Of a DNA stretch of 25,385 bases, positions 1 to 7,714 are shown piece by piece. Origin of the DNA: a virus (lineage: Duplodnaviria > Heunggongvirae > Uroviricota > Caudoviricetes). Within the stretch, counting starts at the first letter, position 1, and every line of letters starts with the position of its first letter. Location of the stretch: IMG/VR virus record IMGVR_UViG_2657245081_000005. The stretch is one strand, 5' to 3'. Below the pieces are notes generated by a model. It saw only the letters and a program-made list of their open reading frames with translations, had not been told where the DNA came from and did no database searches. The position numbers and the translations under genes are program-made.

Positions 1-264
1 ATGAAGAAGCGTTTTTCCGACGAACAGATCATCAGTATTCTCCGCGAAGCCGAAGCTGGGGTACCCGCCCGTGAACTCTGCCGCAAGCATGCCATTTCCG
101 ATGCCACGTTTTACACCTGGCGTAAGAAGTATGGCGGTATGGAGGTGCCTGAAGTTAAGCGCCTGAAGTCGCTTGAGGAAGAGAACGCCAGACTCAAGAA
201 GCTGCTTGCCGAAGCCATGCTGGATAAAGAGGCGCTTCAGGTGGCTCTTGGGCGAAAGTACTGA
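1..264 (+). CDS. IS3-family transposase OrfA (HTH DNA-binding subunit)
   Basis: 87-aa ORF MKKRFSDEQIISILREAEAGVPARELCRKHAISDATFYTWRKKYGG..., HTH plus leucine-zipper-like pattern of IS3/IS407-group OrfA; stop TGA at 262-264. Confidence 0.85.
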   Translation: MKKRFSDEQIISILREAEAGVPARELCRKHAISDATFYTWRKKYGGMEVPEVKRLKSLEEENARLKKLLAEAMLDKEALQVALGRKY

Positions 265-287
265 CGACAGACCAGAAGCGGGAAGCC

Positions 288-771
288 GTGATGTTGATGT
301 GTGATGCGACCGGTCTGTCGCAACGTCGTGCCTGCAGGCTTACAGGTTTATCCCTGTCGACCTGCCGCTATGAGGCTCACCGTCCGGCTGCTGATGCGCA
401 TTTATCAGGGCGCATCACTGAGCTGGCACTGGAGCGCAGGCGTTTTGGCTACCGTCGTATTTGGCAGTTGCTGCGCCGTGAAGGGCTTCATGTTAATCAT
501 AAGCGCGTGTACCGGCTTTATCACCTCAGTGGCCTGGGCGTAAAACGCAGAAGACGTCGTAAAGGGCTGGCAACAGAACGTCTGCCGCTGCTCCGTCCGG
601 CGGCGCCCAATCTGACCTGGTCGATGGATTTCATCATGGACGCACTTTCCACCGGTCGCAGGATCAAGTGTCTTACCTGCGTCGATGATTTCACAAAGAA
701 AGGGGTCCGCTTGGAAAACGGAATCTATGGTCACTCCCGTTTTTGCAACACCGATTTTGACGACAAGTTGG
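288..771 (+). CDS. IS3-family transposase OrfB, N-terminal part (partial)
   Basis: ORF opens with GTG at 288 in the -1 frame relative to orfA; ...RFGYRRIWQLLRREGLHVNHKRVYRLY...LTWSMDF... typical of OrfB N-terminus; ends at N-run. Confidence 0.75.
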
Positions 772-781
772 NNNNNNNNNN

Positions 782-1223
782 TGCAAACATCCGGCGGGTT
801 GCATCCATCCGGGACTGCAATGTTTCCCGGACATCATCCGGTAGATGGCTGTAGGGGTTGCCATCCACCTTATGGCTGCCGCTGTAAATCAGCGTGATTT
901 CCACGCCCTGTTTCTCCAGTGCAGCGCCGTAATTACTGTGAGCCATCATGACGCCGATGGAGCCTGTCCGGGCGGTCTGCGTGACCAGACGCCGGGAGGC
1001 GGCACTGGCAAGCAGCTGACCTGCGCTGCAGTTCATGTCATTGGCCAGCGCCCATACCGGCTTTATGTCACGCACACGGGCGATGATGTCAGCGCAGTCA
1101 AATGCTCCCGCCACCATTCCGCCCGGTGTGTCCATATCGAGCAGAATGCCGTCCACCATCGGGTCGCTGGCAGCCTGTTGCAGACGGGCGATAATGCCGT
1201 TGTAACCGGTCATCCCCGAGTAC
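782..1223 (-). CDS. C: Lambdoid prophage prohead protease / minor capsid protein C (S49 family), internal fragment
   Basis: Minus-strand translation ...GYNGIIARLQQAASDPMVDGILLDMDTPGGMVAGAFD...IYSGSHKVDGNPYSHLPDD... matches lambda gpC as remembered; both ends cut by N-runs. Confidence 0.75.
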
Positions 1224-1233
1224 NNNNNNNNNN

Positions 1234-1525
<292 letters not shown>

Positions 1526-1535
1526 NNNNNNNNNN

Positions 1536-1631
<96 letters not shown>

Positions 1632-1641
1632 NNNNNNNNNN

Positions 1642-1798
1642 TCTTTGAAGTGCTCACACAGATTGTCTGATGAAAAGTGAATAGCAAGGCGTTTACGCGT
1701 TGGGAGTGAGGCTGAAGAGAATAAGGCCGTTCGCTTTCTATTAATGAAAGCTCACCCTACACGAAAATATCACGCAACGCGTGATAAGCAATTTTCGT
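1642..1798 (+). other. rrn operon 16S-23S internal transcribed spacer (tRNA-Glu type), upstream part
   Basis: Non-coding sequence immediately preceding tRNA-Glu, as in E. coli rrn spacers (from memory). Confidence 0.6.
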
Positions 1799-1858
1799 GT
1801 CCCCTTCGTCTAGAGGCCCAGGACACCGCCCTTTCACGGCGGTAACAGGGGTTCGAAT
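1799..1858 (+). tRNA. tRNA-Glu (UUC), 3'-truncated by N-run (60 of about 76 nt)
   Basis: GTCCCCTTCGTCTAGAGGCCCAGGACACCGCCCTTTCACGGCGGTAACAGGGGTTCGAAT matches E. coli tRNA-Glu; anticodon loop CTTTCAC. Confidence 0.85.
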
Positions 1859-1869
1859 NNNNNNNNNNA

Positions 1870-2289
1870 GTTACGAATACAGATCCTCTGGGGTTAGAAG
1901 TTTTTCCTAGACCATTCCCCTTGCCAATTCCATGGCCCAAAAGCCCTGCACAGCAGCAAGCAGATGATAATGCTGCAAAAGCATTGACAAAATGGTGGAA
2001 CGATACAGCATCACAAAGAATATTTGACTCTCTAATATTGAATAATCCGGGACTAGCATTAGATATAACAATGATAGCTTCTCGTGGAAATGTTGCAGAC
2101 ACAGGGATAACTGATCGTGTCAATGACATAATAAATGACAGATTCTGGAGTGATGGGAAAAAACCCGACAGATGTGACGTACTTCAGGAACTAATTGATT
2201 GTGGTGATATTAGTGCTAAAGATGCAAAAAGCACACAGAAAGCCTGGAATTGTCGTCACTCCAGACAGTCAAACGATAAAAAAAGATAG
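1870..2289 (+). CDS. Rhs-family C-terminal toxin tip (domain downstream of the DPxGL junction), 5'-partial
   Basis: Frame is open from the block start; translation begins VTNTDPLGLEVFPRPF... (Rhs core/tip junction motif), then an AT-rich tip ...WWNDTASQRIFDSLILNNPGLALDITMIASRGNVADTGITDRVNDII...; stop at 2287-2289. Confidence 0.7.
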   Translation, partial: VTNTDPLGLEVFPRPFPLPIPWPKSPAQQQADDNAAKALTKWWNDTASQRIFDSLILNNPGLALDITMIASRGNVADTGITDRVNDIINDRFWSDGKKPDRCDVLQELIDCGDISAKDAKSTQKAWNCRHSRQSNDKKR

Positions 2290-2309
2290 CCCTTGTGGAG
2301 GTTCCTGCA

Positions 2310-2555
2310 ATGTCAAATACATACCAGAAAAGAAAGGCAAGTAAAGAGTATGGTTTATATAATAAATGTAAGAAACTAAATGATGATGAATTATTTCGCT
2401 TACTTGATGATCGCAATTCCTTGAAAAGGATTTCATCTGCCAGAGTATTACAGTTAAGAGGGGGGCAAGACGCTGTTAGATTGGCAATTGAATTCTGCAC
2501 TGACAAAAATTATATCCGTAGAGATATCGGAGCATTTATACTCGGGCAAATATAA
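2310..2555 (+). CDS. Putative Rhs immunity-like protein (possibly yibG-like), ending at an in-frame TAA
   Basis: ATG at 2310 preceded by GGAGG; MSNTYQKRKASKEYGLYNKCKKLNDDELFRLLDDRNSLKRISSARVLQLRGG...; the same frame stays open after the stop to the N-run. Confidence 0.5.
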   Translation: MSNTYQKRKASKEYGLYNKCKKLNDDELFRLLDDRNSLKRISSARVLQLRGGQDAVRLAIEFCTDKNYIRRDIGAFILGQI

Positions 2556-2623
2556 ATTTGCAAAAAATGCGAAGATAATGTTTTTAATATTTTGAACAAT
2601 ATGGCATTGAATGNNNNNNNNNN

Positions 2624-2953
2624 TTTTTTGATGGTCGCCCCGCTGTTTTTGATGAGGCGGATTTTCCGGCAGTTGCCGTTTATCTCACCGGCGCTGAATA
2701 CACGGGCGAAGAGCTGGACAGCGATACCTGGCAGGCGGAGCTGCATATCGAAGTTTTCCTGCCTGCTCAGGTGCCGGATTCAGAGCTGGATGCGTGGATG
2801 GAGTCCCGGATTTATCCGGTGATGAGCGATATCCCGGCACTGTCAGATTTGATCACCAGTATGGTGGCCAGTGGCTATGACTACCGGCGCGACGATGATG
2901 CGGGCCTGTGGAGTTCAGCCGATCTGACTTATGTCATTACCTATGAAATGTGA
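2624..2953 (+). CDS. U: Lambdoid tail terminator protein U, 3' part
   Basis: ...[108 protein letters not shown]. Confidence 0.85.
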
Positions 2954-2960
2954 GGACGCT

Positions 2961-3092
2961 ATGCCTGTACCAAATCCTACAATGCCGGTGAAAGGTGCCG
3001 GGACCACCCTGTGGGTTTATAAGGGGAGCGGTGACCCTTATGCGAACCCGCTTTCAGACGTTGACTGGTCGCGTCTGGCAAAAGTTAAAGAC
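2961..3092 (+). CDS. V: Lambdoid major tail protein V, 5' part
   Basis: [44 protein letters not shown]..., 8 bp after the U stop. Confidence 0.85.
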
Positions 3093-3147
3093 NNNNNNNN
3101 NNATCAATGCCCAGGTTACATATAATAATAAGAGCAATTAACTTAAT

Positions 3148-3474
3148 TTATTTTTTTATAATGCGCTTACTTAATACAAACCATTGAATATACCCTCCTG
3201 ACAGAAAATAAAGCCATATTATTATCGCCATAATATACTTACTATCAATCCTTACGCCAATAATGTCTGATACAGTCCCTATAAATATTAGAGCAATAAA
3301 GAATACTATGCCTGTTGGAAAACATATTACCATCATTCCATAAGACATGAGACTAATTAACTCGCTCACATCACGAGTGGAGTCTAATAGTGAAAGTCTA
3401 TGCATGGAAAAGAATAGTATTAAAAGCGATAAAGCCAGCCATATAGCTCTGAATAAAAAAATAATATATTTCAT
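3148..3474 (-). CDS. Small membrane protein, putative cognate immunity protein of the upstream Rhs toxin (possibly ybfB-like)
   Basis: 108-aa [26 protein letters not shown]...MMVICFPTGIVFFIALIFIGTV...AIIIWLYFLSGGYIQWFVL, about three hydrophobic helices; start codon overlaps the toxin stop; AT-rich. Confidence 0.6.
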   Translation of the reverse strand: MKYIIFLFRAIWLALSLLILFFSMHRLSLLDSTRDVSELISLMSYGMMVICFPTGIVFFIALIFIGTVSDIIGVRIDSKYIMAIIIWLYFLSGGYIQWFVLSKRIIKK

Positions 3475-4056
3475 TACATCACTCCGGTGAATACAAATCT
3501 AATAAAACGTCCAATGTTATTTCCGGAGCACTTCATCTTACATGTTTCTAAAGAATCATTAGACCAGTCTTGGCAGTTTTTAAATAGCCCTAAATTTATA
3601 GGTGTGAATATATCAGGCAATACAGAATAACGCGGCCTTACCTCTTTAAACTTCCCTTTTAAACAGTTCTCCACACAACTATTATCGGTTTCAACGAGGT
3701 CACAACGGCCAGCAGCTTCTTTTGTATCATTACTTGCTTTACCTGGCCCCCATAGACCATCTCCTTTTGATTCTCCCCGTTGGTCTTGGCCACCACAAGT
3801 ATAGTCCCCTTTACCATCTGGGACACAAAGATATTGATGATAGAACGGATTCCCCCATATATCTGGACCGCTTCTTTCACCAGTTCCGCCCATTGAATGC
3901 AGTGGCTTAATGCATTTTAGTGTTTCTAATCCTAATGGATCTATATTTGAGATCGGATTCAACGGATACTGATAAAAATTCCATCCCCCTTTCAGCCCAA
4001 TCGGATCCTGAGTGATATATCGCCCCTGCAGCGGGTCATAATAGCGGTGGCGGTTG
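3474..4056 (-). CDS. Rhs-family protein: 3' end of the core repeat plus C-terminal cysteine-rich toxin domain, 5'-partial
   Basis: Minus-strand frame open from the N-run: [43 protein letters not shown] (Rhs core end) followed by about 150 aa with 9 Cys; stop at 3474-3476; GC drops sharply after the DPLGL motif. Confidence 0.75.
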
Positions 4057-5963: not shown

Positions 5964-6042
5964 NNNNNNNNNNTGTCGATGCGGGAGGGCAATCCAGCAA
6001 TGGTAATGCACCTGTTTTGCTTTCTCTTGCTCNNNNNNNNNN

Positions 6043-6282
6043 GCTGCTGGAGACGCAGACCGTGGATTTCAGCGTGGGTGCCGAAGGGCTTCGCCATGTG
6101 CCGGGTGATGTTATTGAAATCTGCGATGATGACTATGCGGGGATCAGCATCGGCGGACGCGTGCTGGCGGTGAACAGCCAGACCCGGACGCTGACGCTCG
6201 ACCGTGAAATCACGCTGCCATCCTCCGGTACCACGCTGATAAGCCTGGTTGACGGAAGTGGCAATCCGGTCAGCGTGGAGGT
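6043..6282 (+). CDS. J: Lambdoid J protein, internal fragment
   Basis: ...LLETQTVDFSVGAEGLRHVPGDVIEICDDDYAGISIGGRVLAVNSQTRTLTLDREITLPSSGTTLISLVDGSGNPVSVEV. Confidence 0.8.
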
Positions 6283-6292
6283 NNNNNNNNNN

Positions 6293-6572
6293 ACGCTTCG
6301 GACTGACCATCCGGAACTGTGTCCGGAACAGTCGCGACGGGCTGGTATCCCAGGTGGCCTGAACGAACAGTTCACCGTTAAAGGCATGCATGGCCACACC
6401 TTCCCGAATCATCATGGTGAACGTGCGTTTTCGCTCAACGTCAATGCAGCAACAGTCGTCCTCGGCAAACTCTTTCCATGCCGCTTCAACCTCGCGGGAA
6501 AAGGCACGGGCTTCTTCCTCCCCGATGCCCAGATAGCGCCAGCTTGGGCGATGACTGAGCCGGAAAAAAGAC
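6293..6572 (-). CDS. B: Lambdoid portal protein B, internal fragment
   Basis: Minus-strand ...SFFRLSHRPSWRYLGIGEEEARAFSREVEAAWKEFAEDDCCCIDVERKRTFTMMIREGVAMHAFNGELFVQATWDTSPSRLFRTQFRMVSPKR. Confidence 0.85.
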
Positions 6573-6633
6573 NNNNNNNNNNCTAATTACGGTGGGTTCG
6601 GTGGAAGTAGTTTGTAGTATCCAGCGCAGTATC

Positions 6634-6709
6634 GGGTGATTAGCTCAGCTGGGAGAGCACCTCCCTTACAAGGAGGGGGTCGGCGGTTCGATCCCGTCAT
6701 CACCCACCA
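6634..6709 (+). tRNA. tRNA-Val (UAC), complete with CCA
   Basis: GGGTGATTAGCTCAGCTGGGAGAGCACCTCCCTTACAAGGAGGGGGTCGGCGGTTCGATCCCGTCATCACCCACCA; anticodon TAC. Confidence 0.9.
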
Positions 6710-6753
6710 CTCTCGCCAGCTAAATTTCTTGTAAAAATGTGAAGTACCGAAGT

Positions 6754-6808
6754 GGGTGATTAGCTCAGCTGGGAGAGCACCTCCCTTACAAGGAGGGGGT
6801 CGGCGGTT
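6754..6808 (+). tRNA. tRNA-Val (UAC), second tandem copy, 3'-truncated by N-run
   Basis: Identical 5' 55 nt to the copy at 6634; 44-bp spacer between copies. Confidence 0.85.
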
Positions 6809-6818
6809 NNNNNNNNNN

Positions 6819-7128
6819 ACCCGAAATGACGGTCAGATATTATATCAGCTCTGCTGATTTAACTGCAGAGAAGTTCGCCACAGCAATCCGAAACCACTGG
6901 CACGTGGAAAATAAGCTGCACTGGCGCCTGGACGTGGTAATGAATGAAGACGACTGCAGAATAAGAAGAGGAAATGCAGCGGAATTATTTTCAGGGATAC
7001 GGCACATTGCTATTAATATTTTGACGAATGATAAGGTATTCAAGGCAGGGTTAAGACGTAAGATGCGAAAAGCAGCCATGGACAGAAACTATCTGGCGTC
7101 AGTCCTTGCGGGGAGCGGGCTTTCGTAA
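6819..7128 (+). CDS. ISAs1-family (H-repeat-associated) transposase, C-terminal fragment
   Basis: ...[99 protein letters not shown]. Confidence 0.8.
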
Positions 7129-7173
7129 TCTTGCCTTGGATCAAATACTCCTTACATAATTAAGGAGAACAAA

Positions 7174-7601
7174 ATGGAACTTAAAAAATTGATGGAACAT
7201 ATTTCTGTTATCCCCGATTACAGACAAGCCTGGAATGTGGAACATAAATTATCGGATATTCTACTGTTGACTATTTGTGCCGTTATTTCTGGTGCAGAAG
7301 GTTGGGAAGATATAGAGGATTTTGGGGAAACACATCTCGATTTTTTGAAGCAATATGGTGATTTTGAAAATGGTATTCCTGTTCACGATACCATTGCCAG
7401 AGTTGTATCCTGTATCTGTCCTGCGAAATTTCATGAGAGCTTTATTAACTGGATGCTTGACTACCATTCTTCAGATGATAAAGACGTCATCGCAATTGAT
7501 GGAAAAATACACCGGCATTCTTATGACAAGAGTCGCCGTAAGGGAGCGATTCATGTCATTAGTGCGTTCTCAACAATGCACAGTCTGGTCATCGGACAGA
7601 T
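7174..7601 (+). CDS. ISAs1-family (H-repeat-associated) transposase, N-terminal fragment
   Basis: AAGGAG RBS then [62 protein letters not shown]...; starts 45 bp after the stop of the preceding tnp 3' fragment. Confidence 0.8.
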
Positions 7602-7611
7602 NNNNNNNNNN

Positions 7612-7714
7612 CACGCTGTACTCGGCAACGCCGTCAGGAACCCGGCTCACTTTCACCTTCACGCCGTCGGTGACGGACTGGACCTCCACGCTGACCGGAT
7701 TGCCACTTCCGTCA
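7612..7714 (-). CDS. J: Lambdoid J protein, short internal fragment
   Basis: Minus-strand DGSGNPVSVEVQSVTDGVKVKVSRVPDGVAEYSV. Confidence 0.75.

Follow-up and report, generated by a model that had tools for sequence, protein, structure and literature searches.

A RhsA toxin tip joined to a yrhC-type yibA fragment in a viral sequence record: a probable copy switch during assembly

Genes at the locus

The block at positions 1869-2613, which is flanked by two runs of 10 N, carries the 3' end of an rhsA gene and the beginning of the immunity gene that goes with it (Table 1). It is part of the window, by which we mean the whole stretch of 25,385 nucleotides that was analyzed (IMG/VR record IMGVR_UViG_2657245081_000005). 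In Rhs proteins a shell of YD repeats surrounds a C-terminal tip, cleavage takes place at the DPxGL region and the tip is delivered to neighboring cells; the immunity protein guards the producer and its kin. Read from position 1870, the block encodes VTNTDPLGLEVFPRPF... (VTNTDPLGLEV...), a frame of 139 codons that is closed by a TAG. A preliminary description, made from the letters alone, had taken this frame for an Rhs C-terminal toxin tip followed by an immunity gene, and both assignments held. The profile search that it had proposed for the tip returned a complete Ntox34 domain (Pfam PF15606; E = 4.9e-44; score 148.8 bits, cut-off 25; aligned over positions 1-80 of the 80-position model), and the block as a whole is 99.1% identical to the rhsA/yibA genes of E. 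coli K-12, with all seven differences located within yibA.

The PxxxxDPxGL boundary motif was found as VTNTDPLGL at 1870-1896, its proline codon being lost to the start of the block; K-12 reads PVTNTDPLGL at the matching position. The block does begin 13 nt before DPLGL, as had been described, and the tip that follows the motif is real, with 130 residues rather than the approximately 125 first given. The sequence of the tip is the same as that of the K-12 RhsA C-terminus, and in K-12 and other finished genomes it continues a RhsA of 1,377 aa; in the window, no core of the source genome adjoins the block. The earlier idea of an orphan tip had to be given up, since the sequence from 1869 to 2363 has no base differences from K-12 and is that of the main rhsA tip. 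Some match to the block is present in 3,141 of 5,426 complete E. coli genomes, and 1,742 of them contain at least 80% of it. The tip has kept the GNxxD (RGNVAD) and WxCxH (WNCRH) motifs, which are listed as Ntox34 motifs in a description of this all-alpha toxin (Zhang et al. 2012, PMC3482391); the same work pairs Ntox34 with Imm-HEAT immunity proteins. According to the summary of Vlazny & Hill 1995 that is given in PMC3150448, the RhsA C-terminus stops recovery from stationary phase and yibA neutralizes this effect.

We identified the downstream ORF as yibA, which encodes the HEAT-repeat immunity protein to RhsA (280 aa, PDB 1OYZ); the block covers the first 101 codons of the gene. Directly 3' of the toxin it has a ribosome binding site of its own, with GGAGG and an ATG at 2310, 20 nt past the rhsA stop, as expected of a YibA-type immunity gene and as the preliminary description had it. 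The ORF begins MSNTYQKRKASKEYG..., and it is equally true that it meets a TAA after 81 codons and that no further stop follows in this frame over the 19 codons (ICKKCEDNVFNILNNMALN) up to the N-run. At position 2553 K-12 has A (AAA, Lys82) and the window has T (TAA). When homologues were consulted on whether they read through this site, the full-length ones were found to have Lys (AAA) there, which makes the TAA a premature stop when compared with the YibA of 280 aa. Because of the Ntox34 match, the identity with K-12 and the homologues reading Lys, we regard the tip and the ORF as real genes and not as chance reading frames.

An intact HEAT-repeat protein of approximately 280 aa is not encoded, the frame being stopped after 81 codons. 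The NCBIfam model NF007244 gave 108.9 bits against a cut-off of 275, with residues 1-81 aligned to a model of 285 positions. A Pfam search detected no HEAT repeats in the 81-aa ORF; all of the matches in full-length YibA lie at residues 99-243, past the stop, so that an 81-aa product would be without the repeat body. Judged by its sequence, with a stop at codon 82 and a score below the NCBIfam cut-off, the fragment would fail as a functional YibA.

Table 1. Features of the block at 1869-2613, its continuation elsewhere in the window, and paired blocks used to define the assembly nodes
Feature	Position	Strand	Basis or remark
rhsA 3' end: VTNT last core codons, DPLGL 1882-1896, toxin tip, TAG 2287-2289	1869..2289	+	no base differences from K-12 rhsA (L001:6000-6420)
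Ntox34 toxin domain, residues 60-134 of the translated fragment	2047..2271	+	Pfam PF15606
Stretch of 68 nt, same in rhsA-linked yibA and rhsB-linked remnant, with the haplotype switch inside	2296..2363	.	SNP tables
Shine-Dalgarno GGAGG, 8 nt 5' of the yibA ATG	2297..2301	+	seen in the sequence
yibA-type immunity ORF, 81 codons to premature TAA (Lys82 of full-length YibA)	2310..2555	+	alignment, NF007244
Segment with seven yrhC-type SNPs, the last making the TAA	2364..2553	+	same as K-12 L003:6842-7031
yibA frame past the stop, 19 codons = YibA residues 83-101; node end 2613 = 2553 + 60	2556..2613	+	
Remnant continuation as a separate node, towards ISEc1 (yhhI)	10111..10238	+	100% to K-12 L003:7099-7226
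Block of 248 nt, paired with 21652-21899 (248 nt)	10249..10496		last mismatch at 188
Block of 280 nt, paired with 24706-25385	6293..6572		last mismatch at 220
Block of 103 nt, paired with the tail of 12764-13178	7612..7714		last mismatch at 43

Origin of the stop codon

A 61-nt query around the TAA matched K-12 at 100%, at a second locus. This locus contains a 403-nt yibA remnant (L003:6736-7137) between yhhH and the ISEc1 transposase gene yhhI, and its PGAP annotation reads "lyase; internal stop; incomplete; missing C-terminus". The K-12 gene order is rhsB-yhhH-yrhC-yhhI, with yrhC between yhhH and yhhI (PMC10652928), and from this position we identified the remnant as yrhC. ISEc1 cuts yrhC off after approximately 117 codons, that is, approximately 35 codons past the TAA, so that neither read-through of the TAA nor re-initiation after it would give a full product from the canonical remnant. 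An apparently IS-less locus (L012) was also considered as a means of placing the left boundary of ISEc1, and was set aside when it proved to hold most of the IS still.

Seven sites distinguish the window from K-12 rhsA/yibA (2364, 2413, 2462, 2492, 2499, 2504 and 2553), and yrhC carries the Lys82 to TAA change together with the same six linked SNPs; the yrhC base is thus present at 7/7 sites, K82* included, and the sequence from 2364 to 2613 is identical to the K-12 remnant. Upstream the picture is reversed. At 2279, 2292 and 2295 the window has the A, C and G of the rhsA locus against the G, T and A of the remnant (0/3 sites of remnant type), the rhsA tip is found in place of yhhH, and the end of the remnant towards ISEc1 exists in the window only as a separate node at 10111-10238. 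Since the block is of rhsA type up to 2295 and of remnant type from 2364, the switch must lie within 2296-2363, a stretch of 68 nt that is common to both copies.

The 61-mer bearing the TAA is present exactly in 1,778 of the 5,426 complete E. coli genomes, about a third, K-12 among them, and the exact 81-aa ORF was found in 9,961 blocks of a public assembly collection. Among the matches listed, 10/10 long contexts had the order rhsB (DUF4329 tip)-yhhH (Imm-NTF2-2)-ORF-ISEc1-yhhJ. To judge from this distribution, the TAA is evidently an old and widespread pseudogene allele of yrhC and not a new mutation. The preliminary description had left a choice between a nonsense mutation in an immunity gene and an orphan immunity remnant; the latter comes closer, as the TAA and the six linked SNPs make up the yrhC haplotype. 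It had also allowed for homologues that end at the same site, and an identical 81-codon ORF is indeed very common; it is, however, a fragment of a pseudogene and does not represent a natural family of 81-aa proteins.

Occurrence of the mosaic in sequenced genomes

None of the 5,426 complete E. coli genomes searched matched the block above 99.3%, the mosaic junction (2270-2420) had no match at 100% in any complete genome, and an exact scan for the junction in genome contigs gave 0 matches. Full-length yibA genes were counted with a 180-nt query that extends across the TAA and past the end of the remnant. A full-length yibA was present in 2,952 complete genomes; only Z1323CEC0013 matched the query at 100%, and three others were one base off; two of these (STEC276 and J2) have an intact yibA and the third is 1919D62. 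The TAA occurs within full-length yibA only in Z1323CEC0013 and 1919D62 among the 2,952.

In Z1323CEC0013 (L002, NZ_CP148427.1, locus 6001-7284) the rhsA-linked yibA contains all 11 remnant SNPs, the stop included, and these are confined to the 403-nt homologous stretch, a sequence pattern that indicates gene conversion. In the rhsA gene of this strain a +1 frameshift at DPLGL detaches the toxin, and toxin and immunity gene are therefore both inactivated. In 1919D62 (L004, NZ_CP046009.1, locus 1-3180) a full-length yibA that contains the internal stop comes directly after rhsB-yhhH, to which it is fused, and the yibJ orphan and yibG lie behind it; there is one copy only of yibA-type sequence and the Ntox34 tip has been lost. 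This arrangement is consistent with a deletion of approximately 142 kb by recombination between yrhC and yibA. From these two genomes it is clear that yrhC and yibA do exchange sequence in nature, and mosaics at single sites were found in 29+2 finished genomes (e.g. 2013C-3277, STEC276 and J2). In both finished genomes with a stop in full-length yibA the cognate toxin is either frameshifted (Z1323CEC0013) or deleted (1919D62); this result (2/2) fits with the loss of immunity being tolerated only where the toxin is disabled or lost.

The exact 135-nt mosaic junction was found in nine metagenome contigs (L018-L026), several of which have a coverage of only 1.4-5.5x. Further to the right these contigs show many differing mosaics of the two copies (A/B), with some switches within 50 nt, and none of these mosaics occurs in finished genomes. 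In L024, for example, a copy with Lys82 runs into the remnant end, and in L020 a full-length yibA contains the TAA. The yibA/yrhC locus is a recurrent site of chimeric assembly, of real exchange, or of both.

Assembly structure of the window

The window consists of approximately 50 short blocks separated by exactly 10 N each. The fragments are unrelated and of repeat type, and include IS elements, prophage paralogues, an rrn spacer and Rhs tips. Where two blocks are paralogous, the first base is a mismatch, and the block extends exactly 60 nt beyond the last one (three pairs are given in Table 1). At 1642-1858 the window has an rrn 16S-23S spacer whose tRNA-Glu breaks off after exactly 60 nt; this, too, is a node boundary and not a truncated gene. 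The block-end rule and the cut in tRNA-Glu together identify the blocks as nodes of a k=61 de Bruijn graph, with the first 60 bases lost after each gap. The blocks resemble Velvet-style scaffolds, and truncation at their edges is an assembly boundary and not biology. The preliminary description was thus right that the block is cut at both ends, but these ends are boundaries of the assembly graph. Suffix-prefix overlaps among the blocks were limited to a few of 17-33 nt, which is the chance level.

We also built a k=61 graph of canonical loci, namely an rhsA-yibA-yibJ locus and the K-12 rhsB-yhhH-yrhC locus. The written node boundaries in this graph fall at 1869, 2355, 2363, 2613 and 2620, with the next node starting from 2621, and the two ends of the block, 1869 and 2613, are among them. 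The paths of the two copies meet at k=61 only in the 68-nt stretch 2296-2363, which forms a shared node of 8 k-mers, and in a 67-nt stretch at 2554-2620. The block at 10111-10238 begins at the next A/B SNP (the equivalent of 2621, a T), and the 7 nt ATAAGAG that are absent between 2613 and that block are the rest of the 67-nt shared node.

Each end of the block also carries information on the other sequences that were present in the assembly. Position 1869 is the first base unlike the yibJ orphan core fragment of non-K-12 rhsA loci, and the left end of the block therefore implies that this fragment was present; in canonical genomes it lies directly 3' of full-length yibA. On the right, a node that ends at 2553+60 requires that the assembly contained another copy in which position 2553 is not T; this was presumably yibA with its AAA intact.

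Other blocks of the window

Several further blocks were characterized. On the minus strand, 3103-4056 contains another Rhs tip module, in which a core end with DPLGLE (ORF 3474-3962) is followed by a hydrophobic, immunity-like ORF of 108 aa (3148-3474, minus strand). The core part of this module is approximately 91% identical to the end of the rhsA core, and a Pfam search of the module (3148-3962, minus strand) assigned no family to either ORF. The block at 6819-7601 is ISEc1/H-repeat-like (96% to K-12 yhhI), and in it the 3' part (L003:8107-8428) of the element runs on into its 5' part (L003:7244-7706). This circular permutation suggests tandem copies or a cycle in the graph.

The blocks at 10249-10496 and 21652-21899 are two versions, 98% identical, of a DUF5375-family region; 231 complete genomes contain this region, nearly all of them as a single copy. 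Neither arm of this pair has an exact match in finished genomes, and the pair reflects either a source with two related integrative elements or a mixed sample. The largest block (13189-17945) spans the chromosomal nhaA-nhaR region and a fimbrial usher operon, and is matched at 99% or above in only 61 genomes. It is 100% identical to strains like ATCC 8739, which have canonical loci, and by its sequence this block hints at a phylogroup A source of the ATCC 8739 type.

Origin of the junction

The explanation that we prefer, with a probability of roughly 0.7, is that the rhsA tip was joined to yrhC-type yibA by a copy switch of the assembler, and that the combination of an intact tip with a stopped immunity gene is artefactual. 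The source cell would have had rhsA with an intact yibA, as well as rhsB-yhhH-yrhC, in the usual arrangement. The assembly path would have led from the rhsA-specific node into the shared 8-k-mer node, and from there into the remnant arm in place of the yibA arm. All boundaries of the block follow from a canonical genome, the sole departure being that the remnant arm was taken instead of the yibA arm, and from this we infer that the join is artefactual and that yibA is intact in the source genome. The identity of the largest block with ATCC 8739-like strains was counted as fitting this explanation. The varied A/B mosaics of the nine low-coverage metagenome contigs are likewise the pattern expected from path switching through bubbles in a graph.

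Some observations speak against a copy switch. Other blocks of the window cross identical stretches of more than 61 nt, which shows that the assembler can phase through a short node common to two copies, and the present join may likewise be founded on actual reads. The A-type arm that the copy switch predicts (2364-2613 with AAA) is absent from the blocks of the 25-kb window. Among the metagenome contigs, L020 (JAERMT010000038.1, 84.6 kb) has the haplotype of the window and then full-length yibA. Real exchange between yrhC and yibA, finally, is documented in finished genomes by Z1323CEC0013, 1919D62 and the single-site mosaics.

These last observations are also what would be offered for a real gene conversion, in which the full-length yibA next to rhsA was partly overwritten by yrhC, 142 kb away, over a tract of 2364-2553 or longer, so that the TAA was imported and the immunity gene inactivated beside a seemingly intact toxin tip. 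Z1323CEC0013, with its remnant SNPs confined to the homologous stretch, and the 29+2 genomes with single-site mosaics would be precedents, and L020, which has the haplotype of the window, C at 2621 and then the remainder of yibA, would be the product itself. L020 comes from a short-read assembly, however, and is open to the same artefact, and the mosaic was seen in 0 of the 2,952 finished genomes with full-length yibA. It would moreover be unusual for the toxin to be intact while its immunity gene is dead, given that the toxin is frameshifted or deleted in Z1323CEC0013 and 1919D62. The geometry of the block is a further difficulty. Copies that are alike over 2296-2620 predict a node end at 2355 or 2620 and not at 2613, and the observed end needs a copy with a different base at 2553; a short-tract conversion that left both copies the same over this stretch was rejected for that reason. 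We therefore regard gene conversion as unlikely. That the source strain really has an intact, in-frame RhsA Ntox34 tip beside a yibA knocked out by conversion from yrhC is a proposition that we doubt somewhat more strongly. If it were true, a decayed orphan immunity remnant would have acted as a donor that poisons an active immunity gene, leaving the toxin without its cognate immunity.

A real but different architecture would have the Ntox34 tip followed directly by a truncated remnant of yrhC type and ISEc1, with an intact yibA elsewhere. One possibility is a rhsB-type locus that kept its old tip instead of receiving the rhsB tip and yhhH; another is a tandem duplication of the 142-kb rhsB..rhsA interval, which would have created such a junction anew. 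Such an architecture would allow a copy with A at 2553 to coexist with the block, and block 10111-10238 would provide the remnant end. Among the metagenome contigs L018 has this order, with nikD..rhsB core, Ntox34 tip, A-type sequence on the left, the remnant segment with the TAA, T at 2621 and the remnant end, and in 1919D62 the reciprocal deletion product is actually found. L018 is, on the other hand, a low-coverage metagenome contig that extends over two repeat junctions, and the architecture was seen in no finished genome. If the tip were present twice, the end of the shared node would also be expected at 2363, and a join made by the assembler would still be required. We consider this reading quite improbable.

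A fresh AAA to TAA mutation in the yibA of the source strain, for which a single A-to-T change at 2553 would suffice, is ruled out for practical purposes by the six further substitutions within 190 nt, which with the TAA make up the remnant haplotype at all seven sites, and by the presence of the TAA 61-mer in so many complete genomes already.

Comparison with known systems

All of the parts found here are known, namely the RhsA (Ntox34)/YibA (Imm-HEAT) pair, the yrhC remnant and recombination with remnants at Rhs and CDI loci, and the finding is an ordinary one. It has little biological weight, since rhsA-yibA and yrhC have long been annotated in E. coli and the stop is a common pseudogene allele. 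The lesson is one of method: windows made of short-read nodes can simulate a broken gene beside an intact partner by a switch between paralogues of approximately 97% identity, and a node end at the last variant + k-1 betrays the second copy.

Compared with the rhsA-yibA locus of K-12, the window has the same Ntox34 tip, 20-nt spacer, GGAGG and start codon. It differs in the seven remnant-type substitutions, which give the N-terminus of YibA the changes Q19K, H35R, S64T and K82*, and in that the end of the node leaves only 101 codons of the gene. With yrhC it shares the sequence of 2364-2613 and, as block 10111-10238, the continuation of the remnant; it departs from yrhC in being of rhsA type at 2279, 2292 and 2295 and in having the Ntox34 tip upstream instead of yhhH.

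Displaced remnants, and recombination between main and orphan copies, have been described for Rhs and CDI loci (Poole 2011, PMC3150448; Koskiniemi 2014, PMC3967940). The resemblance to those orphan modules lies in a decayed and displaced immunity fragment 3' of a main rhs gene and in homologous exchange between main and orphan copies, as in Z1323CEC0013 and 1919D62. The orphans described there are toxin tips in the same array, whereas the remnant considered here is a fragment of an immunity gene at another rhs locus, 142 kb away, and the exchange within the window itself is probably not real. The window shares with the repeat chimeras of short-read de Bruijn assemblies the node ends at the last variant + k-1, the absence of the first k-1 bases after gaps, and a copy switch within a shared stretch of at least k bases.
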